A stretch of 64,000 nt of DNA from a virus, in IMG/VR virus record IMGVR_UViG_3300025978_000012, positions 12,191 through 76,190 of that record; one strand, written 5' to 3'. Below, one piece after another: positions 5,327 through 27,681 of the stretch. Position 1 is the first letter of the stretch. The number at the start of each line of letters is the position of its first letter. The position numbers were made by a program, and so were the translations under genes. The notes beneath the pieces are model-generated. The model saw only the letters and a program-made list of their open reading frames with translations, was not told the origin of the DNA and did not search any database.

Positions 5327-6832
5327 TTATATCATGTTGTAACGGTTCACGTTCGTCGAATCGATACCAATGTTCCTGATTTCTACAAGTACATTCGGTT
5401 TATAGTATTTCGGAACACCATACAGGTTTATAAGACCCTGGCTGAACCGGCCTACTTTGGCCAAATCGGTATTGTGAATCGGGAGCAATTGGCTGAACGC
5501 CATTACTCGTTGTTCCCCTGCGGTCGTTTGGTCAACGATGAACATACGCGCCGTTCCGGGAATGTACGAGTTTTTATCGGTATAAGTAACCGCCGCAAGC
5601 GGGTTTGTCGCCGCCGCTACGGTATCAAGATACCGAAAAGTGCCGCTTCCACCGACTTTTTCAGAATAAATTTCAAAACAAGATGGAAGTTTCGATCCTG
5701 AATCAGCCGGGTTTGGCGTAATCGTTATGAGAATTGATCCTGCCGCCGCAACAACGCTCGTTGATTCAACTGCCGCGCAAGCGATTGACCGGCCATACGC
5801 ATTTCGAGCCACAACGCGATAATTATATTTGACTCCAGAAGGTCGTACAGTTGCCGATGCAAATACAGACCCCGAAGTGCCAGCCTGATTGGTAAGGGCA
5901 ATGGACGGAACAGAGGGTGCCTTATCGGATGTTGCACCTTCAATCCATGTTGAGGTTGTATTCTGAAAATACTGTGGAACAACTTTTGCCTCATACGCCA
6001 TTCCCAGAAGTTTATCCATCCGAGGTATCATGAGGCCATAGTTAGTCATAATCCCGGATATTTTTCCACCAATGGTAATACCATTTTTACCCATTTCAAC
6101 GATTTTACGATCGCCACTTGATGCAGCTTGACTTTCAATAATCGTTGATAGGTTCTGGACGCCAGAAGGAGAAACATACAAACGGCAATTATCAACATGA
6201 CCATTGGCTTCAGTAATAAGTTGGCCCATGAGGTTAAACGTATTCATGGAAACACTTGCGCCTCTCATGTCCTGTATTTGGTCCGAAGATTGTCCGGATA
6301 TCGTTTTTGATAGTCCATCAATCGATTTTGGTATCCATGTGCTATTTCCAGCATAAAGTGCGATATCAAGATTTCTAAGAAGTCTGTTCATTGCAGCCCT
6401 TTGGGACCGTGTACGTTCATCGATTATCGTCTGAGTTGCTTCAGCAACGTCGCCCACCGTCCATCCTTCAGACATAAATTTAACGACAGCAATTTGTTTC
6501 AGGATATCAGGATCGCGAAATTCCGGGTTTTCAATCTGACCCACGAAACCGCCATCATTGATACCAAGTCCGATTTGCTGATCGTATTCTTCGACCGTCG
6601 AAAAGGCTTTAATTTTGTTAATGTCTTGCCACAGCGTAAAATCCGTGGCGTTCAAGGTTAGGTCTGCAAGCATCCCTTCAAGGGACTGTTTGGTCAGTGA
6701 CCCCCCTGCCGTATTGTACATATCATCGACGCTACCCGGAGCAAGTAAGGCTTTTGCCAATTGTTCCAGTTGTTGCGCCGAGCTGATCCCCATTTCGGTA
6801 TCAGCCAATGAGAGAATTTCTTGTTCGTTCAT
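5327..6832 (-). CDS. Major capsid protein precursor
   Basis: 501 aa. LAKAL cleavage-type site at about aa 25-29, GGSLTKQSLE, TVEEY and DGL motifs as in SPO1/K-like MCPs; follows protease and scaffold. Confidence 0.85.
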   Translation of the reverse strand: MNEQEILSLADTEMGISSAQQLEQLAKALLAPGSVDDMYNTAGGSLTKQSLEGMLADLTLNATDFTLWQDINKIKAFSTVEEYDQQIGLGINDGGFVGQIENPEFRDPDILKQIAVVKFMSEGWTVGDVAEATQTIIDERTRSQRAAMNRLLRNLDIALYAGNSTWIPKSIDGLSKTISGQSSDQIQDMRGASVSMNTFNLMGQLITEANGHVDNCRLYVSPSGVQNLSTIIESQAASSGDRKIVEMGKNGITIGGKISGIMTNYGLMIPRMDKLLGMAYEAKVVPQYFQNTTSTWIEGATSDKAPSVPSIALTNQAGTSGSVFASATVRPSGVKYNYRVVARNAYGRSIACAAVESTSVVAAAGSILITITPNPADSGSKLPSCFEIYSEKVGGSGTFRYLDTVAAATNPLAAVTYTDKNSYIPGTARMFIVDQTTAGEQRVMAFSQLLPIHNTDLAKVGRFSQGLINLYGVPKYYKPNVLVEIRNIGIDSTNVNRYNMI

Positions 6833-7705: not shown

Positions 7706-8593
7706 TTAGTTAATGCTTCTATTCATCTTTATAAATTTATCAATCAACATAAATGATTTATTACCAAATTCTTTTTTGTTTTTCTTTTCAAAATGTTTTA
7801 GATATTCAGCTTTCCGTAACGGAATTTTTTTATTTTTTATTCCAATAATAGTATGTATTAAATCAAGACCTTCGTTTTCATCAAATAAAAGTTTAACTGG
7901 TTTTTTTTCAATGTCTTGTTTCGTTATGACGCCACCACTCGAACCATTATACATATCTGAAACATTTGAAGGAGCCATAAGTGCTTTCGTTAAAACTTCT
8001 TCGTGTTCGATTATTGAACTATTGCGAGAAAAAATATTGAGGTCGTCAAATTCACAAAGAATATCATTTGCTTTTTGTAAAAGACGAACATTCATTCCGG
8101 GTTCACGGTTTATAACGGAATTTGCAGGCGCGATTGCAAGATGGTCCCATTTTATTTTAGGAATAACTTTATGTTTTTTACCGAGACTGTCTGCGACTTC
8201 AAGCACCATTTTGCTCCCGCCAATACTCGCACTATAAACAGGTTGCTCCGCCTCTAAATGAGGAAGCATGGTTTGAACGATGGGGTGACTTTTGGTTAAT
8301 TGGGCTGTAACGACTGGCTTTCCGTCTTGCCAACGAAAAGCGATAGGTTTTCCAAGAAGATTTGAATTTTTTTCTTCTTTGGTAAGAATTGGGTTCTTAC
8401 TTTCGTGCCAAAATTCAACAACTCCAATATCAAGAAAATTTTTAACAGTTTCTTTGTTGAATGCTTCTTTTAGGACCAATTCATCGTCAGAATCAGGCGT
8501 CAAGTGATTTGCCACAATATCAACAGTAATGATTTTATCATTACTTGCTTTATTTAATGTTGATATAGAAAATCCATTAATCTGGAAAAGCAT
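7706..8593 (-). CDS. Prohead (capsid maturation) protease
   Basis: DSDDE...FWHE...SASIGG...LAIAPANSVIN pattern of HK97/herpes-fold phage proteases; synteny. Confidence 0.75.
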   Translation of the reverse strand: MLFQINGFSISTLNKASNDKIITVDIVANHLTPDSDDELVLKEAFNKETVKNFLDIGVVEFWHESKNPILTKEEKNSNLLGKPIAFRWQDGKPVVTAQLTKSHPIVQTMLPHLEAEQPVYSASIGGSKMVLEVADSLGKKHKVIPKIKWDHLAIAPANSVINREPGMNVRLLQKANDILCEFDDLNIFSRNSSIIEHEEVLTKALMAPSNVSDMYNGSSGGVITKQDIEKKPVKLLFDENEGLDLIHTIIGIKNKKIPLRKAEYLKHFEKKNKKEFGNKSFMLIDKFIKMNRSIN

Positions 8594-8686: not shown

Positions 8687-8872
8687 TCAACAATTATTTG
8701 AAATCATTGTTCGGCACTGGCGGCATTTCATTTCTTCTTTTCCAGTTATTTTGTTTCGATGTAAAAGGGTTATTTTTCGATAAAGAATTTCTTTTTCATT
8801 TTCGATTGATAATACTGTATTACAATTGGGACATTTGTGTTTGATTCCATTTTCTATTAAAATTTCTTTCAT
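8687..8872 (-). CDS. Small zinc-ribbon protein (Com-like)
   Basis: CPNC...CRQC in 61 aa. Confidence 0.5.
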   Translation of the reverse strand: MKEILIENGIKHKCPNCNTVLSIENEKEILYRKITLLHRNKITGKEEMKCRQCRTMISNNC

Positions 8873-8874
8873 TA

Positions 8875-11800
8875 TTATTTGTCCTTTTTAGAGTTATCTT
8901 TTTCCCTTGTGGGATTAGAGATATTTTTATTTTTAATATTTTCTTTTTTCTTTTCGGATAGGGATTCGCCTGTCTTTTCAATCGCTTCTCCGGTTACGGG
9001 AACAGTCTCTTTTGCTGACAGTGCATTCGCTAGAATGTCAGCTACTTTTTTTAAGGCATCCCTCATTATTCCACGTTTTCCGCTAGAATCAGATTTTTTT
9101 TGTTGATCCGGTTTTTTTTTGTCTGTTTTCTTTTCATCTGTGTTTTTATTAGATTTTGGTTTCTTTCCTTCTTTTACCGGTTCCCATTTTCCCGGACCGA
9201 CTTTTCGCCATTTGCTGCCATCGGAATATGTATGCACCGCACCGACTTCTGCTTTTTTGGCTTTTTGGAGTTCGGAGAAAAGTAAGTAAGCGGCTTTGTA
9301 CATTTTTTGTTGAGAAGTTCCATTTTTTCTTATTAATTCATTTGGTTTTATTAAATTAAAAATTGACTTTTTGAGAGGGGATTTCTTTTCTTCGTTATTA
9401 TGTTTATCCAATTCTTTTGACATTTTTTCTTTTATGGCATCAAAATCATCGGCATTACTTATTGTTCCTTCGAAATTAGAAACAATTGTTTTTGACGGAA
9501 TATGTTTAATTGAAAATTTAACCTCTCCGGTATTTCCATCAACACTAGAAATTAACGCATATTGATTTGTATTGGAAGCGTTACGGCCAACAGAATTTAT
9601 ATGATTTTTAAATTCTTCTATTTTCGGATTTAATTTACTTAATGCTATTTTTTTATTCTTATGTAACGTAATTTCGCTTTTGTCTGGTTGTTTTTTTGAC
9701 ATTATTTCTCTTGCTTCCGAATGATCTAACCCAAGCAATTCTTTCATGGAATATTTTACACCAGAGGAACTTGTGACTGAAAATTCACTTTTTTTAGCTA
9801 TTCGGGGATTGCCGTTCGGATTTCCGAGTGGTATTTCATCACCTACTTTCAATTTATTCCAATATTCGACTTTGGCTTCTTTTATTTTTTCTTTTTTATT
9901 AAGAGTTGATTCTTCTTTTTTCTTATTTTCTTCTTTTTTGATTTTGTCAATTCCAAGCAATGATTCGATATCATTTGTTTTTTCCTTTATCCATAAATCA
10001 AAATTATCCTGAGACCGATCAAGCCCCCTTCCCCTGAAATCCGCCTGCTTTTTGTTAAAATTACTTCTACCGGCTACTGCCGAAGAAAACATTGAAGATG
10101 CAGATTTCCATATTTTTTCTCTTTCAGATAAATATTCTTTTTGAAAATTTTCTATTATTCCTTCAAGCTTTGTTTCATCAATATCAGGAATATATTTTTT
10201 TATATTTTCTTTAATTTCCTTAGTTACATCTTCAAAATATTTCTTTTCCACTTTTGCTGTATTTGATGGAGACAAATGAACGCTACTATATGCAGATTCT
10301 ACTCTTTTGGATGGGAATTCCACAATTGATTCTTTATTTGTTTCATCTCCATGATGTTTTTTTGAATCAGGATATTCGTAAAGCCAATCACCGCCTCTTC
10401 CTTTCCATCTTTTAATATATTTATGTCCTGGATGTTCCCCAAAATATGCTTTTTGTAATATTTCTTCGTCTTTTATGTACTTGTGCGGACCCGGCCTATC
10501 GGCCTTTTGTATTTTATTATAGATAGCTTTTTGTAAAATATCTGATGATTTCAATAATTCATTAGCATCCAATAATTTTTGAAAATAATCTTTTACATCT
10601 CCTTCAAATTTTATTCTATATCCAATAGCCCCTGCCCCCCCTGTTCTTATATTATTTTTTGACCAATTATCTCCATCCATCCCATTATTTTCAACATTCC
10701 AAATATATTCTTTATTGTCATCAATTAATAAATACGATCCTCCACCATAAATATTCATTGTATCAAAATATACTGTTCCTTTAAGATTTATTTGTTGTTC
10801 TGATTTAAAATATTCCCCTTTGTCTTGAATTAATTTTTCAATTTTTTCTTTTGCTTGATTAAAATTATTTTTTATTTCATTTTCTTTTTTAATTTTTTCT
10901 TGTTTTTCATTATATTGTTTTATTTCATCTTCTGTTGCTTTGCGATAATAATAGTACGATCCCCATTCACCTTCATGGCCTAATGTTTCAAAATATATAG
11001 ACGGCATATTTTCGTCAATTTTAAATGATTTTCCTTGTTTTTCATACACAATAATTGAATTTCCACTTTTTATAGGAATATTCAATTGTGGAGATTTTGA
11101 ATCTGGAAATATAGATTTTCCTCGTCCTTCTTCTTTGTTTTTATTTTCTTGTTCTTGTTTTTTTTCTTTTATAGAATCTAAAATTTTATTTAATTTTTCT
11201 TTTTTTTCTGGATAATTTTCAATTCCTAAAATCTTTAATGTTTGCAATCCTTTTTCATATACATATCCCTTATCTGCGGCTTCTTTCATATATTCAAGAT
11301 AATTATTTATTTTTTCAATATCTTTTTTATTTCTTACTTTAACATGAATTTCTTTTAATTCTTTTAAAAGTTCTTCTACTTTGTTAATTCCTAATTGTTT
11401 TAATCTTTCAACCCCTTTGTCATATATATATCCTTTGTTTGCAGCTTCTCTTACATATCCCATCCATCTGTCTAGTTCTTTTTTGTTTATTTCTGTGTTT
11501 GATTTTTCTTTTATTTCTTCAATTTCATTATCAGAAATAGGATATATTTGTATTTTTACACCATATTTATTTTCTTCTTTATGTTTTAATGCATTGATTG
11601 TAATTTTATCACCAGGTTTAAAATTCTTACTTGAATCGTTAATATATAAATCCATTTGAAAAGTTTTACCAGGATTTACGACTTTAAAATATTTTCTACC
11701 TTGTGAAATAATTTCTAATTCTATCTTTGAAGGTTTTATGTTTTTAAATTGTTCTGGAATATTTTCTGTTTCTTTTTTTTTTACTTTTTCATCTAATTTG

Positions 11801-12843
11801 TCTTCTTCTTCTTTAATTGATTCTTTATTTGTTTCATCTCCATGATGTTTTTTTGAATCAGGATATTCGTAAAGCCAATCACCGCCTTTTCCTTTCCATC
11901 TTTTAATATATTTATGTCCTGGACGTTCCCCAAAAGATGCTTTTTGTAATATTTCTTCGTCGTCTTCTTCCATATGCTTTTCACCACTTTCGCTATATGC
12001 GATAGCGATGGCTTGTTCACGATTTGTTACTATTTTTCCATCACTTGAATGGAGTGTACCTCTTCCGAATTCATGCATTACGGCATCAAATTTATCTTTG
12101 GGGGAAAGTCCTTTTCTTTTTTTAGCTCCCGCGCCCAATTTATTTGAATGTTTATATATGCTTTCTGAAATAGCCTTTTCCATTTTCTCATTCTTTACAA
12201 TATTCATTTTCCCATCTTTGTATTCAAGTGCCATTTTACCATCATTAGAAACAAATTTTTTATGTTCAAAATCCAGTTTTCCACCACGAAAAATAGCACG
12301 ATGTTCCGAACTCATACCTTCAATCGCAATTCTAAATTTTTCATGCAATTTGCTTGGTGTCAACGGACCTTCATCTTTTTCTTTCCCACCCTTCGGGGCT
12401 TCGACATAAGATTTATTTCCATGCCCTGAAACAGGTTCCCAAACTTTATCGCTAACTTTTTTATATTGCTTTCCGTCTCCCCATGTAGCGGTTGTTCCAA
12501 TGGGCATTGCTCTGGCTTTTTCCATTTCATCGTTATTTATTTTAAGAAAAATTTTTTTTCCGTTTTCACTGTACAATTCAATCATTTTCATATTATACGC
12601 CTTTTTCATTAAAATTTCTTTTATTTCAGTAGTATATTTCAAATTTTCATCGATAAGTCCAGCACTTTTTAACTCAAAATAGTATCGTGAATTTTCTTTT
12701 AAATGATCTGCGGCTATTTTAGCCGCCTCTTCTGGTCCCTCGTGATGTTCCATCTCGATTTGTATTCCCATTGCGAATTGAAGTGGATCAAATTTTTTAA
12801 ATTTTGATTTATTTTGTTTTATAAATTCAATAATTTTATTCAT
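8875..12843 (-). CDS. Large modular (polyvalent-type) putative internal head protein with DUF5661-like N-terminus and DUF6496-like domain
   Basis: 1322 aa. GIQIEMEH...IAADHLKE..RYY; VMHEFGRGTLHSS...NREQAIAIAYSE; repeated LxKA sites and repeated PGHKYIKR and KVxxxxWEPV tags. Confidence 0.7.
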   Translation of the reverse strand: MNKIIEFIKQNKSKFKKFDPLQFAMGIQIEMEHHEGPEEAAKIAADHLKENSRYYFELKSAGLIDENLKYTTEIKEILMKKAYNMKMIELYSENGKKIFLKINNDEMEKARAMPIGTTATWGDGKQYKKVSDKVWEPVSGHGNKSYVEAPKGGKEKDEGPLTPSKLHEKFRIAIEGMSSEHRAIFRGGKLDFEHKKFVSNDGKMALEYKDGKMNIVKNEKMEKAISESIYKHSNKLGAGAKKRKGLSPKDKFDAVMHEFGRGTLHSSDGKIVTNREQAIAIAYSESGEKHMEEDDEEILQKASFGERPGHKYIKRWKGKGGDWLYEYPDSKKHHGDETNKESIKEEEDKLDEKVKKKETENIPEQFKNIKPSKIELEIISQGRKYFKVVNPGKTFQMDLYINDSSKNFKPGDKITINALKHKEENKYGVKIQIYPISDNEIEEIKEKSNTEINKKELDRWMGYVREAANKGYIYDKGVERLKQLGINKVEELLKELKEIHVKVRNKKDIEKINNYLEYMKEAADKGYVYEKGLQTLKILGIENYPEKKEKLNKILDSIKEKKQEQENKNKEEGRGKSIFPDSKSPQLNIPIKSGNSIIVYEKQGKSFKIDENMPSIYFETLGHEGEWGSYYYYRKATEDEIKQYNEKQEKIKKENEIKNNFNQAKEKIEKLIQDKGEYFKSEQQINLKGTVYFDTMNIYGGGSYLLIDDNKEYIWNVENNGMDGDNWSKNNIRTGGAGAIGYRIKFEGDVKDYFQKLLDANELLKSSDILQKAIYNKIQKADRPGPHKYIKDEEILQKAYFGEHPGHKYIKRWKGRGGDWLYEYPDSKKHHGDETNKESIVEFPSKRVESAYSSVHLSPSNTAKVEKKYFEDVTKEIKENIKKYIPDIDETKLEGIIENFQKEYLSEREKIWKSASSMFSSAVAGRSNFNKKQADFRGRGLDRSQDNFDLWIKEKTNDIESLLGIDKIKKEENKKKEESTLNKKEKIKEAKVEYWNKLKVGDEIPLGNPNGNPRIAKKSEFSVTSSSGVKYSMKELLGLDHSEAREIMSKKQPDKSEITLHKNKKIALSKLNPKIEEFKNHINSVGRNASNTNQYALISSVDGNTGEVKFSIKHIPSKTIVSNFEGTISNADDFDAIKEKMSKELDKHNNEEKKSPLKKSIFNLIKPNELIRKNGTSQQKMYKAAYLLFSELQKAKKAEVGAVHTYSDGSKWRKVGPGKWEPVKEGKKPKSNKNTDEKKTDKKKPDQQKKSDSSGKRGIMRDALKKVADILANALSAKETVPVTGEAIEKTGESLSEKKKENIKNKNISNPTREKDNSKKDK
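10324..10470. repeat. 147-bp direct repeat, copy 1 (encodes DEEILQKAxFGExPGHKYIKRWKGxGGDWLYEYPDSKKHHGDETNKESI)
   Basis: Matches 11815-11961 with 3 mismatches by eye. Confidence 0.95.
11815..11961. repeat. 147-bp direct repeat, copy 2
   Basis: Offset 1491 bp (497 codons, in frame) from copy 1. Confidence 0.95.
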
Positions 12844-15083
12844 ATTTTTTTATACTCAAATTGATTTGTTTTAGGATTGAATTTTTTAAAAAATGCTTTT
12901 AACATTTGTTCATTTTCTTTAAAAAATTGCTCCATAAGTGGCATTATTTTTTCTTTAAAAATTTCATCAGAAGGATGATTTTTTTTATCATTCCATTGTT
13001 TTAAAATATCATCATTTCCACTTTTTATAGCCCAATATTGCTCCATTGCTCTTGCAAAACACTCTGCCGTTCTATTTTGATATTTCGATTTTTGAGGTTT
13101 TTCCATATTTTTACGAAACAAATAAGCTATTTTACCGGCAATATGATTGGGGTCATCGCTAATGTAATGTCTTTTTGATTTGTTTCCCATATAATAATCC
13201 ATAAAATGTCCCCATTCATGGGATAATATAAATCCTGTTCCTTTTTCACCTGATTCTGTTATTCCTATTGCGTGATAATATGGGAAAAACAAACCACATG
13301 CTTTCCGAGCGTGCATCATTTTTGTACCTGCATGACTTATTTTTAATCCGAAGTTTTTAGCCATTGATGATCTATCTCCAAAAATTTCATAAACTAAATC
13401 AATAGCGTTTTTAATTTCTTTTATTTCTTCTTTTTTTATTTCAGCACCATTTTGACGTTTTACTTTTACTCCATATTTTTCAAGCAAGTCGTTTTTAGTG
13501 CCTTTGTCGCCGTATGAAGTTTCTTCTCCTTTTGCATGAGCGTTATAAAATTCTTCAAGTTGAATCTCCATATCTTCTGTCTTTTGACGTAAATCTTCTC
13601 GTAATTTTTTGTACTCATTCCACATGGATAATGAATAATTTATTTTTTTTTCATTAAAGTCATTCATGAAATTTTGTTGAGCATATGACATTTTGTTTTC
13701 CGGCATTACCATAACGCGGCTTTTCATTCTTTTTCTCAAATATTCATCGTCGTATCTTCCGGGAGATTCACTTTTTATTTTTTCTATTCTTTTATTTATT
13801 TCTTCTTTTCTTTTTTCTTTTATTATTTTAAGCCAATAATCTTGTGTTGCAGCGAGTACATCCCTCGTTACAATTGCATAATTATTCTCACCTTGTATTT
13901 CTTGACTTGTCCCGCGAATATGTTCTCTTGAAGTTTGTATCAAATATTTATTTTCTTCAAGTTTAACAAATAAAAGAATATTCCCATTATATTTAAACCA
14001 ATTTTCATCCACAACCGGGATATAGGAAGGCTTTATCGTATCCATTATTTTCTTTTCAGAAATTAAATAAATATCTTTTGAGGCAACGGCGGTATAATCC
14101 AATGCCGAAACTTCTGAAGGATTACCACCTTTATAAAATGGAATTGTAATTTTCGATTCAATAGGTTTAAAATCAACTATTGGAATACTTATGTTTTCTT
14201 CATTTACAGGTTCAGCACCCATTATTTCACGTTCTTTCTCAAGGCGAGTTTCAGGGGTAACTTCAGTAATTATTTTTGCTATTTTTATATCTTTTTTATT
14301 TTTAATTTCTGATTCTTCTTTTTTTTGTTCTGGTTGTTTTTCAGGCATTGATTCAAAATTGTTGGGTGCTTTTTCTGTTCCTTTTTGTTTCTGTTTGTTA
14401 TTTTGAATACTCCCTCCATACAACTCATTTATAATTTTCATTACTCCGATTTTAAAAGTTGATTTTTTTACTTCGTTGCCAGTAGACGGAGTTGTTTTTT
14501 TCTTCTTTTTGCCATCACTAGGCTTTTTTTCTGCTGTTTCTTTTTTACCGGAGAATACCAATTGCCACTTGGCTTGATTTTTGAAATATTCATCAATATG
14601 CTGTTTCCAACCGTCCCATGTGAGATTGAATTTTTTATCAAGTTGTTGTTCTTTATAATCTTCTGCAATTTTTTTATTTACTTCTTTTGATTCTTTAAAC
14701 CCAAATAAATTAGCGATAATGTCAATCCAAGACGCTTTTGATTGTTGGTGTCCTTTCGGATCAAAATAAAAATAATCCCAACCTTTACCGGATTTTTTAG
14801 GGACGCGTTTGATGTACTTGTGGCCGGGGCGGGGGGAACCGGAGGCTTTGGTCATACCACCTTTTCCATCAGATTTTCTATTTATATATTTATGCCCAGG
14901 TCTCGGACCAATCGCCTTATTTAATTCAACCAATCCAAAATTTTTAAAATAATATTCAGGATCAGATTGAAGTCGTTTTATGGCGGTTATTGAAGCTTGT
15001 TTTGAATCGAAAGTTTTTTGTAATTCAATTTCTATTGCATCACGTAATAGTTGCGGAGAGTAAGAAAGTTTAGAAAAGTCCAT
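12840..15083 (-). CDS. Modular polyvalent-type protein with C-terminal LPD1/zincin-like domain
   Basis: 747 aa. Two RPGHKYI tags after LNKA and MTKA; HEWGHFMDY...ECFARAMEQY. Confidence 0.7.
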   Translation of the reverse strand: MDFSKLSYSPQLLRDAIEIELQKTFDSKQASITAIKRLQSDPEYYFKNFGLVELNKAIGPRPGHKYINRKSDGKGGMTKASGSPRPGHKYIKRVPKKSGKGWDYFYFDPKGHQQSKASWIDIIANLFGFKESKEVNKKIAEDYKEQQLDKKFNLTWDGWKQHIDEYFKNQAKWQLVFSGKKETAEKKPSDGKKKKKTTPSTGNEVKKSTFKIGVMKIINELYGGSIQNNKQKQKGTEKAPNNFESMPEKQPEQKKEESEIKNKKDIKIAKIITEVTPETRLEKEREIMGAEPVNEENISIPIVDFKPIESKITIPFYKGGNPSEVSALDYTAVASKDIYLISEKKIMDTIKPSYIPVVDENWFKYNGNILLFVKLEENKYLIQTSREHIRGTSQEIQGENNYAIVTRDVLAATQDYWLKIIKEKRKEEINKRIEKIKSESPGRYDDEYLRKRMKSRVMVMPENKMSYAQQNFMNDFNEKKINYSLSMWNEYKKLREDLRQKTEDMEIQLEEFYNAHAKGEETSYGDKGTKNDLLEKYGVKVKRQNGAEIKKEEIKEIKNAIDLVYEIFGDRSSMAKNFGLKISHAGTKMMHARKACGLFFPYYHAIGITESGEKGTGFILSHEWGHFMDYYMGNKSKRHYISDDPNHIAGKIAYLFRKNMEKPQKSKYQNRTAECFARAMEQYWAIKSGNDDILKQWNDKKNHPSDEIFKEKIMPLMEQFFKENEQMLKAFFKKFNPKTNQFEYKKI

Positions 15084-15095
15084 TATATAAATCCT

Positions 15096-15353
15096 TTAGT
15101 CATGTTTCCGACAATCAGCAGAAATAACTTTTCCGTATGGAGCGCAATAAAAGCAATCGCAATTCCAGTATCTAACGTCTATTATATTCATGATCTTGCA
15201 ATATAAATTACTTCGTTCTTTCCCTTTTCGATACATTATACATTCTGTTACATGTTCATATTTCAAATCAATCTTACATACATTAAAAACTTTTACACAA
15301 GATTGACAAAGACTTTTATTTGAATCAAGAATAGGGTTCGTAAGTATTGCCAT
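15096..15353 (-). CDS. Cys-rich small hypothetical protein
   Basis: 85 aa with multiple CxxC motifs. Confidence 0.45.
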   Translation of the reverse strand: MAILTNPILDSNKSLCQSCVKVFNVCKIDLKYEHVTECIMYRKGKERSNLYCKIMNIIDVRYWNCDCFYCAPYGKVISADCRKHD

Positions 15354-17373
15354 TTTTTATCCACTCTCTTAATTTTTTTGTATTCGTAGGAATAATTGAT
15401 AGAATATTTTTTTCCCATCCTTGTCGATAATTTGAAAGATACAATTTTCTGGCTTCGTCAAGAGTTTCACATCCCAAAATTATTTTGACTTCATCAAAAA
15501 TATTATTTCTACCCTGATTTATTATGAATACACGACTTGCGCCAATTTTAGGACCGATATAACAATCAATAGGTTCATTGTCTGTGCCATCTGATCCGGT
15601 TATATAACCATAGTGCGCTTTCATTTTTGAGGCCCACGGTTTGCCATCATTGGCTAATCCAAATCGCCAACTTCCCTTGGGATTTTCTATAGAAATATTT
15701 ATATTTTTATAAATTATTTTTCCTTTTTTATAATTTCCATTTTCTTTTTGTTTTTCAGTAGGTTCCACAAATTCCATTTCTTCAAGTTGTTTTTTTACTG
15801 ATTTAATTTCATTTTTTTCGTAGAATATATTTTTAATTATTTCAATTATTTTATCGTTTCGCTGATTGAAATTTACGGCAGTTCCGCCAGCCGCAGTCCA
15901 CGAATCAAGATTCACGGAAGTATCGTCTATTAATATACTTGTTTCATCTATTACATACTCTTCTTTATTATCAGAAAATATAACAGTATATTGCTCCCCA
16001 AAATTTTCTTTGATCCAATAAATTTTATCATGTTTGCAATTATCCATACCAGGACAGGGTGTAGTTAAAAATATAATAATATAATCATCTTTTAATAAAT
16101 TAAATAATTCGCGTCCCTTCTCAATTACCTGAAGATTGCGAAAAAAAGAAGGAACACTTATTACCGCCTGATGTATGGTAAAGGGGTCGTCTTGATAGGC
16201 ATCACGTAAAAATGTATTTTTATATTCTTTTGCAAAATTGCAAACTACTCCATCCATATCAAAAAAAATTTGTTTTCTGTTTGCATAAGGCGTAGCTTTT
16301 TCAAGAGGAGAAAAAATAATTTTATTTTTATTAACCGGTATTATCGCCTTTTCAAATTTTATGTATTGAATTCCATTTTCAACTTTTATAATATTATTAT
16401 TTAAAATTTTACGTGGTATTTCAATATCTTGAATTTTTTCAAGCATTCCCGCTTTACGCAAAAATTGTCCTGTTGCTTTATTGTATCTTGGATTAAGGTA
16501 TTCGAATATGTCATTTTTATTAGATTCCCATATATCGTTTATCATTTTATCATTTGCAATACGTTCGAATACTTTTTGAAGTGATGCAAGACCATTTGGC
16601 TCTTCATATTCAAGAATATTATAAAATGATTTATTAATTAAAATGCTTTTAAGATACCATTTATAGATAGTACAAAACATTTCTTCTGGATCGTGTCGTT
16701 CCCAATCATATTCGTATATAGCGGTTGGTCTAACAATTTTAAATAATGCCTTAAATTTTTCTTTTTCTTCAGATAATACAACTGTACGCCAAAAAAGATG
16801 TCCCATTTCATGTAAACAATTGTCAATATAATTTGATTGACTGTAAATATTTATATTGGCTCCTACAAGCATTGATACAATTTTTTTCTTTTGAAATTCT
16901 TCTGATGGAACAAGAAAATTGAACACTGCCGAATGTGCGGGTAAAAAAATTTCTCCCAAACAAAGTTTTCCAATAATATTATTAAATTGAGATAAACTGA
17001 ATTTACAAGTATTTCCATTGCTATCAATTTCGATCCAATCGGATCGTCCGATAATAGCGAAAGGAATATTTCCTGAAGTTTTATTATAATCTTCTTCATT
17101 TATTTTAACGTCTTCTATAATAACGGCCTTTACCATTTTTTCGATAGGAAAATTACTTTCTTCAGAATCAATAAATTTTCCGTCTTCAAATCCGATGACT
17201 AAATGTTCCTCAACAACAAATGGATTTCCTGAATGGATTGCTTTCAATAATTCAGATTTTTCATAATTTCCGTATGATATTTCATAATCTTTTTCTAATA
17301 TTTTTTTTGCTTTTTCAAGATTTTCATAAGGAATATTTTTTTTTGAAAGCTTAATTATTTCGCTTCTTTCCAT
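15325..17373 (-). CDS. Polyvalent protein: zincin-like HExxH domain, HAD 5'(3')-nucleotidase and inorganic-pyrophosphatase-like (InPase) domain
   Basis: HEMGH...EEMFC; FFDMDGVV...FLTT...ILIDD; GNYKKG...ISIENPKGS...HYGYI...D...PIDCYIGP...FDEVKIILG. Confidence 0.75.
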   Translation of the reverse strand: MERSEIIKLSKKNIPYENLEKAKKILEKDYEISYGNYEKSELLKAIHSGNPFVVEEHLVIGFEDGKFIDSEESNFPIEKMVKAVIIEDVKINEEDYNKTSGNIPFAIIGRSDWIEIDSNGNTCKFSLSQFNNIIGKLCLGEIFLPAHSAVFNFLVPSEEFQKKKIVSMLVGANINIYSQSNYIDNCLHEMGHLFWRTVVLSEEKEKFKALFKIVRPTAIYEYDWERHDPEEMFCTIYKWYLKSILINKSFYNILEYEEPNGLASLQKVFERIANDKMINDIWESNKNDIFEYLNPRYNKATGQFLRKAGMLEKIQDIEIPRKILNNNIIKVENGIQYIKFEKAIIPVNKNKIIFSPLEKATPYANRKQIFFDMDGVVCNFAKEYKNTFLRDAYQDDPFTIHQAVISVPSFFRNLQVIEKGRELFNLLKDDYIIIFLTTPCPGMDNCKHDKIYWIKENFGEQYTVIFSDNKEEYVIDETSILIDDTSVNLDSWTAAGGTAVNFNQRNDKIIEIIKNIFYEKNEIKSVKKQLEEMEFVEPTEKQKENGNYKKGKIIYKNINISIENPKGSWRFGLANDGKPWASKMKAHYGYITGSDGTDNEPIDCYIGPKIGASRVFIINQGRNNIFDEVKIILGCETLDEARKLYLSNYRQGWEKNILSIIPTNTKKLREWIKNGNTYEPYS

Positions 17374-17475: not shown

Positions 17476-17504
17476 TTGACAATTGACAAGATCAATTATA
17501 TATT
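17476..17504 (+). promoter_or_regulatory. Sigma70-type promoter overlapped by a 15-bp-arm palindrome
   Basis: TTGACA-N17-TATATT; ATTGACAAGATCAAT-tatat-ATTGATCTTGTCAAT at about 17482-17516. Confidence 0.75.
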
Positions 17505-17535
17505 GATCTTGTCAATAAAAAAAAGAGGGTTATTT

Positions 17536-18261
17536 ATGAAAAAAATATTTATTATTATCATATTTTCAATTAGTATTTCAGGCTGCATTAATGATCTTGA
17601 ACCATTAGATCGTTGGCCGCATGGTCGAATTCCATTTGAACTTATAGGTTTTAATGAACACGAAATCAGTATTATCTATTTAAGTATGTTAAGTTGGGAA
17701 ATTGCTTCTTGCGGAAAAATAAAATTTATTGATAAAGCAATTGAAAAAAATAAAAAAGATAAAAAAACAAAAAAACTATATATTATAAAAAATTCAATCA
17801 ACATATCGGCAGAATTAAACTCAACTAGTATGAGTATTGGTTATCATGGAATGAATTCTAATCATGAAAATACAATTATTTTAAATGAAGTTTTAAAGAA
17901 TAATGTAGAACATGAACTTGGGCATGTTCTTGGCTTAGAGCATGAACATCAACGCCCGGATATATCTACATTAATTATATGGGAAAACATACCAAATAGT
18001 TTACTCTTTAAATTTCAATTCATTCCAATTGAGCCAACATTATATGATTATAAAAAATATCCGTATGATCCAATATCAATAATGCATTATCCAGCAACCC
18101 TACTAATAGACGGAAAAGATATTAAAATTTTTAATGATCCTGAAAATAAAATACATGGAGAAGAATCAATAAGTCCAATTGATTCACAAAAAATTTATGA
18201 TATTTATAATGCAAATCAAGATTCTAAAACTAAATATAATACAGGACATTGGGCAGAATAA
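17536..18261 (+). CDS. Astacin-family (M12A) zinc metalloprotease lipoprotein
   Basis: Signal MKKIFIIIIFSISISGC (lipobox), HELGHVLGLEHEHQRPD zinc motif, Met-turn SIMHY; RBS AGAGGG before ATG 17536. Confidence 0.85.
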   Translation: MKKIFIIIIFSISISGCINDLEPLDRWPHGRIPFELIGFNEHEISIIYLSMLSWEIASCGKIKFIDKAIEKNKKDKKTKKLYIIKNSINISAELNSTSMSIGYHGMNSNHENTIILNEVLKNNVEHELGHVLGLEHEHQRPDISTLIIWENIPNSLLFKFQFIPIEPTLYDYKKYPYDPISIMHYPATLLIDGKDIKIFNDPENKIHGEESISPIDSQKIYDIYNANQDSKTKYNTGHWAE

Positions 18262-18262
18262 T

Positions 18263-19039
18263 TTATTTACTGTATTCTTTTACAATTTCTTTACAAAATT
18301 CACTTAACACTTCAGAAATTTGTCTGTTTATTTCATTTAATATTTTTGGAAATATCGGTTCGGCAGGAACATCGGGATATTGCCACCCAGTACTATTCGC
18401 AGTTACGCATCTAAAAAATCCATATTGAGAATGATATTTACGAGTATTATATCGAGTAAGTCCACCTATATCAATTTCTTTACCTTTCACATTTAAGGTT
18501 GTTCCAATAGGCATCCGTCCTCCGCCTTTTACAATTGCATGAATTTCATTTGTCATTTCACGACCACCGAAACTACTTTTTGCATTCATGCTTGTATTTT
18601 TTCTTGGAGTTCTAACGGGAAACGGAATAATAATATATTTTATTCCATCTTTTCCAATTTTTACTTTTTCTGATTTCATTAAAGCGTCTTTAATAGACCA
18701 TGATTTAACTCCTTTTTCCATCATCATTGCGAACATCAAATTTGGTTTGTCGCTTTCTTTATCAATTATCGATTCATCAAGAAAAATTTCTCCTTTATTG
18801 TTTAAAATTTCATATTTAACGGCAGGAGCATATTTCGTTCCCCATCCTCCAGCATTTATTGCTTCAGATTTCCAATCTTCGGCGGTCCCTTGTGTTAATA
18901 ATGCGATAACTCCCGGTAATTCTTCATTAATTGCATTACAAATTTTGTTAAATTTTTCTTCTGCCATATCCGATCCGGCTGTTTCTAATCCTGCCATTAT
19001 AGAATCAAGAATCAATTCAGAATTAATATCAAATACCAT
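18263..19039 (-). CDS. Putative neck/tail-completion virion protein
   Basis: YIIIPFPVRTP and FFRCVTANS..WQYP motifs resembling SPO1/K-like virion proteins. Confidence 0.45.
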   Translation of the reverse strand: MVFDINSELILDSIMAGLETAGSDMAEEKFNKICNAINEELPGVIALLTQGTAEDWKSEAINAGGWGTKYAPAVKYEILNNKGEIFLDESIIDKESDKPNLMFAMMMEKGVKSWSIKDALMKSEKVKIGKDGIKYIIIPFPVRTPRKNTSMNAKSSFGGREMTNEIHAIVKGGGRMPIGTTLNVKGKEIDIGGLTRYNTRKYHSQYGFFRCVTANSTGWQYPDVPAEPIFPKILNEINRQISEVLSEFCKEIVKEYSK

Positions 19040-26019: not shown

Positions 26020-27681
26020 CTATATTAATCGAATCGCTTTTTCCATGCCGCCCATAGCATCATCAATCATATTGCCTATTTCTTCATCGTCAAAATTTGT
26101 GTCTGAATTTTCATCTATTTGTCCGCTCTCGCTACCCATCGCAGATTGTCCCGCCGCCATTTGTTCTTTTTGTAAAATATATTGAATATATTGCGGATGT
26201 AATACTATGTCGCCATTAGGAAGAGGAGGCTTGTCGTCTAAGGCTCGGAGTTCATTTAAAGTAGTATTGGTTTCAACTGATTTTTTTCGCAAATCGGCCT
26301 CAAAACCCTTATCTTCTGTTGATAACCCATTAAATCGAAACATCCATTCTGTTGAAAATGGAAAATTAGATATTTCAAGAAAGTGGATAACCATGTGCCT
26401 GAATCCGCCAAGAATATCTTTTAGCCCGCGCTCTTTTGAAAATAATTGTTTAGCGTCCTGATTTTCTGAAAGTACTGACTGAGCTTGATTTAATCGAAGT
26501 CCTATTTCCGCAGAGTCTACGCCCATAATGGCACATGTCAATGCACCCGTAAACTCCATATATTTCTGATATTCCATATCACGATTATTCGGAAGAAGTT
26601 GCAAAACTTTCGCATCACCATTGAGAAGTGGTATATTCCACTGACCATCCATCGCCTGAAAATTTGACATCCACTCGTCTTGAGCATCTTCAAGCTGTTC
26701 TTGCGTATAGCTCGAATCCTTACCCATAGCGAGTGCTATTTTAGGTATTGATCCGCGAGACAGGCCATTCGAATTAAATGTGAGAGAATTTATAAATGCA
26801 ACTATTGCAAGATTTGCTTTTTCAGTTACAGAAAATCCCTGTTTATAAAAACGAATATCGTTTAATTCATTTGATAAATCATATATTAAATCTGTCTCAC
26901 GAAATGCGGCGGTTATTCCACCGCCACTTGATCCATATAATAATTCTTGAATATATGAAATTTCTTCTGTAGGTGGGATATTCTCAAGTTTTGCTTTTCG
27001 TATTTCGTCACTTAATCTATTAAATCCAACACTAATGCCAACACCAATTTGCGACGTACTGCCGTAAAATCCGCCGGGTAATATTGGAAGAATCGTCGCT
27101 CCATCAAGCACCCATAACGCGGCCGCTTGTCCTTTCCTATCACGTTCTATTTCCCAACAAACTTTATCGATTAATATACGATCCCGAACATATTTTGTCA
27201 TTAAATCTTTTAATGCGCCATGTTTCGGCTCTATTCCGGCGTAATCGTCCCGACGAGTTTTCACTAAAAAATTTTCAAGGAATTCTTTTTGTTTTTTTCG
27301 TTCAGAATTTAGGATTTTTTCATCGTCTTTAAGTACAAACTCCCAACCAGGAATATCTTTATTATGGGAAATACCCGAAAATTCCATCATTTGTTGAATG
27401 CGAAGGGTTATAATTGATCCAACAATTCCATTTCTACGTTCAATAAGACGAAGCAATCTATCAGGAATTTTATCGCGAGGATATACAACGTTATTCCAAC
27501 TGGTATTATTCAGCCAGTCATATTGCATACCTTTTGCGACTGTTTTAAATTTACGATCAACATTATTTATAAGGGACCGCGCCTCTTTATATGCCCTGTC
27601 ATAATCAAGAGACGCGGTATTAGGGGAATGAGAAGAAAAATTATTATTCTGTTGATTCTTGTTTTTCTTTCGAGACATCAT
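26020..27681 (-). CDS. Portal protein
   Basis: 553 aa. RDRILIDK..EIER, LDGATI, WNIPLL, RDMEY, AEIGL, TLNELR. Confidence 0.85.
   Translation of the reverse strand: MMSRKKNKNQQNNNFSSHSPNTASLDYDRAYKEARSLINNVDRKFKTVAKGMQYDWLNNTSWNNVVYPRDKIPDRLLRLIERRNGIVGSIITLRIQQMMEFSGISHNKDIPGWEFVLKDDEKILNSERKKQKEFLENFLVKTRRDDYAGIEPKHGALKDLMTKYVRDRILIDKVCWEIERDRKGQAAALWVLDGATILPILPGGFYGSTSQIGVGISVGFNRLSDEIRKAKLENIPPTEEISYIQELLYGSSGGGITAAFRETDLIYDLSNELNDIRFYKQGFSVTEKANLAIVAFINSLTFNSNGLSRGSIPKIALAMGKDSSYTQEQLEDAQDEWMSNFQAMDGQWNIPLLNGDAKVLQLLPNNRDMEYQKYMEFTGALTCAIMGVDSAEIGLRLNQAQSVLSENQDAKQLFSKERGLKDILGGFRHMVIHFLEISNFPFSTEWMFRFNGLSTEDKGFEADLRKKSVETNTTLNELRALDDKPPLPNGDIVLHPQYIQYILQKEQMAAGQSAMGSESGQIDENSDTNFDDEEIGNMIDDAMGGMEKAIRLI

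Follow-up and report, generated by a model that had tools for sequence, protein, structure and literature searches.

Introduction

Polyvalent proteins of phages and conjugative elements are large late proteins that consist of unrelated effector domains strung together; their genes are placed beside those for the virion, and packaging of the proteins and their delivery along with the DNA have been predicted, as described in the main text of Iyer, Burroughs, Anand, de Souza and Aravind (2017, PMC5512222). The domain repertoire given in that text comprises InPase, a zincin-like peptidase, ART, Zeta toxin, ddrB-ParB, RelA/SpoT and LPD domains. Polyvalent proteins are widespread, and the published proposal for their processing rests on embedded metallopeptidases. 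Here, three large genes (g682, g747 and g1322) are described that are found in a 64,000-nucleotide (nt) stretch of viral DNA (positions 12,191 to 76,190 of IMG/VR virus record IMGVR_UViG_3300025978_000012, termed the window). The window is part of a 76-kb viral contig of an uncultured phage of ~84 kb; relatives and identical proteins were found on ~84 kb contigs. The three genes are on the minus strand and, as stated in the initial annotation, directly upstream of the genes for a prohead protease, a scaffold protein and the major capsid protein. On balance we lean towards the view that they encode head-internal cargo polyproteins of the polyvalent kind, which would be cut by the prohead protease, of the phage SPO1 type, and which bear short recurrent tags (termed tag A and tag B).

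The three genes resemble those of polyvalent proteins in multi-domain make-up (g682 combines zincin-like, NT5C/HAD and InPase domains, and g1322 combines DUF5661, DUF6496 and others), in a signature domain (g682 has InPase, PF18823) and in late/virion location, with the cargo genes placed between portal/MuF-like genes and the protease-scaffold-capsid genes. The difference lies in processing. In the main text of Iyer et al. (PMC5512222) this is mainly by an embedded metallopeptidase, with assemblin-like peptidases as rare C-terminal fusions, whereas here the sites follow the rule of a separate prohead protease. A term search of that main text found neither a junction signal nor short tags described. 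Literature searches by tag sequence, and by the pairing of prohead protease with polyvalent protein, did not turn up a description.

In phage T4, the internal proteins and Alt have a capsid targeting sequence that is removed by the prohead protease gp21 at L/I-x-E. The system proposed here would be similar in that cargo is loaded in the scaffold core, trimmed at a motif that capsid and scaffold also carry, and injected together with the DNA. It differs in that the protease belongs to another family, and the P1 residue is Glu in T4 and Lys here. Also, the T4 substrates are single proteins from which one N-terminal signal is cut off, whereas the proteins described here are long polyproteins with many predicted cuts. 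There is no equivalent of the T4-type targeting sequence: tags A and B are situated after the predicted cut, and before it there are only DUF5661-like leaders or leaders of 5–12 residues.

The prohead protease of phiKZ (gp175) and SPN3US (gp245) cuts at [S/A/G]-x-E. In SPN3US one maturation protease processes many head-internal, ejected proteins, some of them at several sites (PMC5694885, PMC7411985, PMC10052503). The motif is different from the one described below, module-plus-tag cassettes are not known there, and the cargo is mostly structural inner-body and ejection proteins, not shuffled enzyme modules. Cleavage in these phages was measured, whereas here cutting is predicted from sequence comparison. 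In the Dar system of phage P1 (DarA, DarB, DdrB), very large effectors are packaged in the head via localisation signals and some are proteolytically processed (PMC9024508). The signals and processing sites are different or unmapped. We know of no repeated site-plus-tag grammar in the Dar system.

Another comparable system is that of the proteases of SPO1 (gp3.2) and Staphylococcus phage K (Herelleviridae), which are homologous to the window protease and share with it the hydrophobic-x-K↓S/A rule (the arrow marks the bond cut or predicted to be cut) and a copy of the capsid N-arm. However, the mapped head modules of SPO1 and phage K have no large gene between portal and protease; in the window ~8.5 kb of cargo genes are directly upstream of the protease gene. 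What is new here is the extension of the Lys rule to polyvalent cargo, the site-plus-tag cassette, and the association with one protease family.

The prohead protease and its probable cutting rule

The protease gene (P0004; 8593..7706, minus strand) encodes 295 amino acids (aa) and is of the SPO1 gp3.2 type, Peptidase_S78 clan. As expected of this type, it is placed directly before the genes for the 265-aa scaffold protein (P0005; 7631..6834, minus strand), whose first half is acid-rich, and the 501-aa major capsid protein (P0006; 6832..5327, minus strand; phrog_752, E-value = 5e-65). The protease aligns with the SPO1 and phage K proteases, and SPO1 gp3.2 matches Peptidase_S78 (PF04586) with an E-value of 6e-5. 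P0004 itself has no significant Pfam match; its membership in Peptidase_S78 is transitive. A local hidden Markov model (HMM) made from the window protease and the proteases of its relatives, SPO1 and phage K recovers diverse homologues. His63 is invariant.

The capsid protein is 26–29% identical to those of the Bacteroides DAC phages and SPO1-like phages, and can be aligned with the solved capsid proteins of SPO1 (Gp6.1) and phi812. Its propeptide is predicted to be cut at L25-A-K27↓A28 (6749-6760). This site, LAK↓AL, is aligned with ALNK↓AL of SPO1 Gp6.1 and is kept in all relatives. The SPO1 scaffold displays nine [LI]xK↓S sites where 0.75 are expected, the SPO1 protease has four copies of the motif, and two are near the N-terminus of the SPO1 portal. 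In phage K, the capsid protein has the sequence ...EDVVK24↓S25, and the phi812 capsid protein has been deposited in the PDB as chains of 463 and 439 residues, 24 residues apart; these lengths appear to fit a mature start at S25, with a cut after VVK. No published capsid cleavage site for SPO1-like phages turned up in the open literature, thus the phage K site rests on PDB chain lengths and the gene sequence. The initial annotation gives it as established that capsid proteins of the SPO1/K type mature near K-S/A. GC-rich phages that have homologous proteases keep the rule in the capsid N-terminus, the protease and the scaffold.

The SPO1-type S78 prohead protease thus probably cuts by the rule hydrophobic-x-Lys↓Ala/Ser/Gly. 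The hydrophobic residue of the predicted rule appears to be mainly L or M, with acidic residues usual at P4–P5. The acidic P5/P4 preference and the P2 preference, which are not imposed by the search pattern, agree between scaffold sites and tag sites.

It should be noted that aa positions 201–225 of the protease (7919-7993), which come after L-T-K203↓A, are a near-copy of the capsid N-arm (aa 25–48, 6689-6760). A copy of the capsid N-arm after a site is also present in the proteases of SPO1, phage K and the GC-rich relatives. This suggests that the protease takes a place in the capsid lattice as a capsid subunit would, and is freed by self-cleavage.

Motif counts in head proteins

Every peptide quoted in the initial annotation was found in the proteins. 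The motif [LMIF]xK[AS] is present twice in the major capsid protein, five times in the protease, seven times in the scaffold (as [LM]xK↓A, and in agreement with the number first reported), seven times in g682, three times in g747 and 12 times in g1322. Expected counts were obtained by residue shuffling. Observed/expected values are 7/1.09 for the scaffold (p = 0.001), 5/1.10 for the protease (p = 0.002), 12/4.9 for g1322 (p = 0.003) and 7/1.7 for g682 (p = 0.003), and the other ~90 open reading frames (ORFs) of the contig are not enriched (40/45.6). A test for enrichment in the large proteins relative to non-head proteins had been suggested in the initial annotation; shuffling shows enrichment for g682 and g1322 and not for g747, which is taken up below.

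Four relatives from IMG/VR (L001–L004), whose proteases are 54–74% identical to that of the window, repeat the enrichment: scaffolds 6.7–8.2x (seven to nine sites each), proteases 3.4–5.7x, and large proteins 58 observed vs 26.6 expected. Their tail-side ORFs are not enriched (13/16.0). SPO1 and the GC-rich phages repeat the pattern as well. Large proteins of the window phage and the four relatives taken together are enriched ~2.2x. ORFs without tag A in the tag loci were tried as a control set and rejected, as they are enriched too, since proteases, scaffolds and other cargo are among them; tail-side ORFs and motif permutations were used in their place. The forward motif gives 7.0x vs at most 2.1x for permutations of the same composition in scaffolds, 4.7x vs at most 2.6x in proteases and 2.2x vs at most 1.4x in large proteins. 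Because the forward motif is far above these permutations, helices rich in Lys, Ala and Leu do not by themselves explain the enrichment. The enrichment is restricted to head-internal proteins, and the cargo shares its short motif with the capsid and scaffold substrates.

Junction sites in g682

One protein, g682, will be used to show the relationship between sites and domain borders. The gene (P0001; 17373..15325, minus strand) encodes a three-part cargo protein: a zincin-like N-domain (aa 1–348, with HEMGH at aa 188–192, 16798-16812), an NT5C/HAD deoxyribonucleotidase (aa 366–523; Pfam NT5C, E-value = 8e-8) and a polyvalent-type InPase (aa 536–681; Pfam InPase PF18823, E-value = 2e-41). The HExxH is invariant in 42 aligned homologues of the N-domain. 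Foldseek searches with the g682 model gave deoxyribonucleotidase and pyrophosphatase folds. The labels that PHROGs gives to InPase homologues are minor head protein or virion structural protein.

The border between N-domain and HAD domain has the site L357-E-K359↓A360 (16294..16305, minus strand), and a second conserved site, F340-E-K342↓A343, is located at 16345-16356 (minus strand). An all-against-all BLASTP of 12 large proteins was tried for the definition of module borders and rejected: the high-scoring segment pairs were long, Lys-rich and of low identity, and their ends were too fuzzy. Borders were taken instead from anchored listings and from a family of 55 homologues of the g682 N-domain that have differing downstream parts. 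Site 357 is kept as hydrophobic-x-K-[ASG] in 49 of 54 family members and site 340 in 51 of 55, with P2 variable at both; the five intradomain sites are kept in only 40–74% of the family. Depending on the homologue, site 357 is followed by the HAD domain, tag A, tag B or a third basic tag. Because site 357 is kept whatever module follows, the site belongs to the junction and not to one tag. The third tag, K↓A-K-D-L-S-K-L-T-R-K-x-I-T-D-K-x-G-H-x-x-T-V-W-V-K, replaces tag A or B at the junction in, e.g. P0293, P0301 and P0310.

An AlphaFold2 model of g682 built with 42 homologues has a mean predicted local distance difference test score (pLDDT) of 88.5. Values below 50 are found only at residues 95–99 and 359–361. 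The latter encompass K359↓A360 and are the sole inter-domain stretch below 50. The other sites are in helices (K21, K44), a strand (K82), intradomain loops (K248, K307) and a beta-turn (K342).

Modules of g747 and g1322

The g747 gene (P0002; 15083..12840, minus strand) starts with a DUF5661-like leader (aa 1–53), followed by a truncated copy of tag A (aa 54–76, 14856-14924; 5.0 bits with a core-only HMM) and a complete copy (aa 77–108, 14760-14855; 34.7 bits). Both copies begin with an [LM]xK↓A site. After the tags there is a Lys-rich linker and then a C-terminal domain with HEWGH at aa 622; aa 268–730 match phrog_22901 (E-value = 3e-70). A further site, M727-L-K729↓A730 (12894-12905, minus strand), precedes an 18-aa tail. 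This C-terminal site and a short variable tail are conserved in the L001, L003 and L004 homologues, and every g747 homologue in the related phages has a site 14–30 residues before its end.

A g747 homologue is also carried by a Leptospira LE1-like phage. In Leptospira phage LinZ_10 (KF114880; L058, 11308-16877) the homologue opens with a leader of 16 residues, then L-I-L-K↓G and a tag-B-like stretch, and is followed by an SPO1-type protease, a motif-rich scaffold and a capsid protein. LinZ_10 may be an accessible relative for experiments.

The g1322 gene (P0003; 12843..8875, minus strand) encodes a beads-on-a-string protein. Its parts are, in order: DUF5661 (aa 18–59; Pfam E-value = 5e-7); tag B copy 1 with the site M-E-K109↓A (aa 107–138, 12430..12525; core HMM 48 bits); a small alpha/beta module (aa 163–217); DUF6496 (aa 247–289; Pfam E-value = 9e-5); tag A copy 1 with the site L-Q-K301↓A (aa 299–335, 11839..11949); a long, coiled, Lys/Glu-rich middle region; a truncated tag A (aa 778–795) and the complete tag A copy 3 (aa 796–832; both in 10348..10512); and tag B copy 2 with its site (aa 1192–1223), followed by a basic low-complexity stretch and a conserved C-terminal tail (8878..9270). 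These g1322 modules recur in permuted order in other proteins.

An AlphaFold2 model of g1322 aa 1–345 (pLDDT 71) shows confident modules split by low-confidence stretches at 78–93, 141–154, 226–233, 291–308 and 331–345. Sites K81, K223 and K301 are in or beside such stretches. Tag B is predicted as three beta-strands (118–137, in a block with pLDDT 85–91) and tag A as a beta-hairpin (314–326, pLDDT ~73). Neither Foldseek, with the model of the g1322 N-part, nor the ESM Atlas gave a match. Among the 11 motif copies modelled in g682 and the g1322 N-part, four to five are in or next to low-confidence linkers and six are in confident folds. By these models the best-conserved copies appear accessible and roughly half of all copies do not, so the latter are not counted as cut sites; copies inside folded domains are probably not cut.

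The site plus tag A is found twice in g1322 within a 147-bp direct repeat (10324-10470 and 11815-11961) that is 98% identical and has unrelated flanks. The downstream copy of the repeat truncates another tag A after K-Y-I-K. The arrangement has the look of a recent recombination event at the tag, by which modules might be shuffled.

These proteins repeatedly start with a DUF5661-like domain that has (D/N)-P-x-Y-Y at its end and precedes a site and tag A (14925-15083 and 12667-12792 in the window; L001 and L004). This domain may be a removable leader. At the other end, all four relatives share the C-terminal end of g1322 in the last of their large proteins, whose gene comes directly before that of the protease. 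The last cargo protein ends with tag B, a Lys-rich stretch and an A-L-K-K-V-A-x-I-L-A-E-A-L-S-G-K...A-V-E-x-x-G-E tail (window 8878-9174, and the ends of L001:5518-9711, L003:7389-9731, L004:6704-9709 and L002:1-801). The L001 protein opens with a similar A-L-S-G-K stretch.

Distribution of the tags

By inspection, the tags contain many Lys, Arg and aromatic residues. The counts given in the initial annotation were recovered: five tag A copies in two genes (g747 residues 61 and 85; g1322 residues 307, 783 and 804), three of full length and two truncated, and two tag B copies, ending at g1322 residues 138 and 1223. In five related phages the tags follow sites in 14 of 14 copies of tag A and seven of seven of tag B, as had been proposed. 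Sites in these phages also begin most DUF5661 copies (one with K↓Q) and DUF6496 copies, HAD domains and C-terminal tails. The predicted cutting signal marks the beginning of nearly every recurring module in the large proteins.

A tag A profile detects at least 612 clusters (50% identity) at an E-value of 0.001 or less among 1.84 billion representatives, and nearly all are of the polyvalent type. Most proteins in these clusters are 500–3000 residues long and have one to five copies. Pfam domains in 55 tag-A proteins include ART-PolyVal, Zeta toxin, InPase, ddrB-ParB, LPD1, RelA/SpoT, Kinase-PolyVal, PBECR2 and MuF. With a core-only tag A HMM, the check suggested in the initial annotation, 171 of 227 copies have a site 16 residues or less upstream. 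A sample chosen regardless of the site was obtained with a degenerate DNA pattern that codes for the tag A core only. It gave 51 stretches in viral contigs whose G+C ranges from 0.30 to 0.73. Hydrophobic-x-K-[ASG] is found 14 residues or less upstream of 74% of the 57 distinct copies, vs 6.9% of background windows, and several of the site-less copies are 8–11 residues from a natural N-terminus. At least 13 tag-A loci have an SPO1-type protease close by, and nine of ten tag-A contigs longer than 38 kb contain one (E-value of 3e-36 or less), before any correction for the base rate of this family among viral contigs.

Tag B is present in at least 219 proteins, nearly all of the polyvalent type. 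Its site is in a fixed register, with the strict motif in 84 of 135 copies and K↓G in many more, and the tag often comes after a leader of only 5–12 residues.

Pfam, PHROGs and NCBIfam have no model for tag A or tag B. A tblastn search of tag A and B peptides against 50,697 phage records gave no match even at an E-value of 10; this is not evidence of absence and is probably due to the short query and the low-complexity filter.

Tag A is also found on single proteins: at the N-terminus of a tRNA nucleotidyltransferase beside an RtcB ligase, at the N-terminus of a T4 Rnl1-like RNA ligase, and at the C-terminus of a portal (such loci are L009:130-1593, L031:6700-8562 and L047:4263-5741). The tRNA-repair enzymes may be pre-packaged counter-defence cargo, and these placements fit an in-head role for proteins that act early after injection.

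A proposed pathway and its alternatives

In the proposed pathway, the polyproteins would be incorporated into the procapsid along with the acidic scaffold. Once active, the protease would degrade the scaffold and trim the capsid protein, and would also cut the cargo at copies of the signal in accessible linkers, not at copies buried in folds. Separate enzymes would be freed: the zincin-like domain, the deoxyribonucleotidase-pyrophosphatase pair and small helical modules. Many fragments would carry, 3–9 residues from the new N-terminus, a short beta-hairpin rich in Lys/Arg and aromatic residues (tag A, tag B or the third tag). The tags may anchor the fragments to the packaged DNA, or at an earlier stage to the acidic scaffold, and thereby keep them in the head until they leave with the genome. 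As every module comes with a site and a tag, the cargo could be reshuffled by recombination at the tags.

The initial annotation had arrived at a similar reading of the large genes as cargo polyproteins, with tags that would serve DNA binding or ejection. The shared grammar, the junction sites in linkers and the position of the tags after sites speak for it; the many motif copies in folds and the site-less boundaries do not. Its expectation that sites fall at AlphaFold domain boundaries is likewise borne out in part, by K359↓A360 of g682 and by K81, K223 and K301 of g1322.

The points that weigh against the proposed pathway are as follows. Five of the seven g682 motif copies are inside the confident fold, the HAD/InPase boundary of g682 has no site, and K109↓A110 of g1322 is in a short helix just before tag B. 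By itself g747 is not enriched for the motif (3/2.6, not significant). Two of the three cargo proteins have HExxH domains of their own, which are possible cutters. Ser127 of the protease (G-G-S-K, counted by hand) meets the G-F/W-S serine of SPO1 and phage K only after an alignment shift of one column. The fixed register of tag B and its short leaders of 5–12 residues also fit a purely structural role.

Holding on DNA or scaffold is in our view the likeliest job of the tags, but it is the weakest step of the explanation, and the following alternative is nearly as good. Cutting may take place as proposed while the tags are loading signals for the acidic scaffold, the capsid interior or the portal, or docking elements for the protease; the model for such signals would be the T4 capsid targeting sequence or the cargo peptides of encapsulins. 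As a whole this is a possibility to be taken seriously, though we do not expect it to be the correct one. The tags are basic and the first half of the scaffold is strongly acidic, tag A is found on the portal C-terminus and on single enzymes that would need a loading signal, and the tags travel with one protease and head type. However, being placed after the cut, the tags would stay on the mature fragments, unlike the T4 signal, which is removed. Also, one tag per polyprotein would be sufficient for loading, yet there are up to five. The docking variant has the additional difficulty that capsid and scaffold sites are recognised without any tag.

A wider proposal, which we offer as speculative and rather doubtful, is that tag A, tag B and the third tag are portable, N-terminus-dependent cargo tags of all phages that have an SPO1-type prohead protease. 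If true, a leader, a hydrophobic-x-K↓A site and a basic hairpin of ~25 residues would be enough for loading, trimming, DNA retention and injection of any protein. This would explain the tag on single anti-defence enzymes (tRNA nucleotidyltransferase, RNA ligase) and would represent a general, engineerable rule for protein delivery by phages.

It is unlikely, in our estimate, that the motif is uncut in the cargo and is a structural helix end before a beta-hairpin, common in phage proteins rich in Lys, Ala and Leu and inherited with the tags, so that the large proteins act whole. The fixed register to tag B would be consistent with this, as would the several copies in helices and strands of confident models and the presence of the motif even at extreme N-termini, where there is nothing to separate. 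But modules of at least six unrelated types come after the motif, its P3, P1 and P1' are fixed whereas P2 varies freely, permutations of the same composition are not enriched, and the best-conserved copy is in a disordered linker. In addition, site-less tag A copies tend to be at natural N-termini, which is expected if a nearby free N-terminus matters.

The least probable alternative, and a quite improbable one, is that the sites are cut by the zincin-like HExxH domains of the cargo itself (g682, g747) and that the prohead protease handles only the capsid protein and scaffold: HExxH is invariant in the g682 N-domain family and g747 has HEWGH, the two best-conserved g682 sites come directly after the zincin-like domain, and autoproteolytic processing by metallopeptidase domains is predicted in the main text of Iyer et al. 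(2017, PMC5512222), but the same motif with the same P5/P4/P2 preferences is on the scaffold, the protease and the capsid propeptide, the grammar also extends to SPO1 and phage K, which have no cargo gene of this kind in their mapped head modules, none of the 55 tag-A proteins matches a polyvalent metallopeptidase family in Pfam, and it is the serine protease, not a zincin, that is common to the tag-A contigs.

The proposed cutting by the prohead protease offers a testable grammar, i.e. a cutting rule common to capsid protein, scaffold and protease, and three short unmodelled tags that mark module starts in hundreds of proteins. If true, the mature injected effectors would be predictable from sequence, and rapid cargo shuffling would be explained, with tag recombination visible as the 147-bp near-identical repeat. 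There would also be a possible handle for the loading of foreign proteins into phage heads. Because the predicted cut is after Lys, standard tryptic proteomics is blind to it; this may be the reason why the grammar has gone unnoticed.

Other features of the locus

The minus-strand genes come in this order: first the portal (27681..26020; Pfam Phage_portal), then several small genes, an amidase among them, a 485-aa protein that is weakly MuF-like, a 258-aa protein, g682, g85, g747, g1322 and g61, and then the protease, scaffold and capsid genes. Two of these are small Cys-rich ORFs with no [LMIF]xK[AS] motif and no family match: g85, of 85 aa, between g682 and g747 (15096..15353, minus strand), and g61, of 61 aa, between g1322 and the protease gene (8687..8872, minus strand). 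The latter gives weak zinc-ribbon-like matches that are under the Pfam cut-offs. The g258 sequence (18263-19039) was considered as a carrier of tag B and rejected, as the HMM gives no support.

An astacin-family metallopeptidase gene (17476-18261, plus strand; Pfam E-value = 2e-15) is situated on the opposite strand amid the head gene block, directly upstream of g682.

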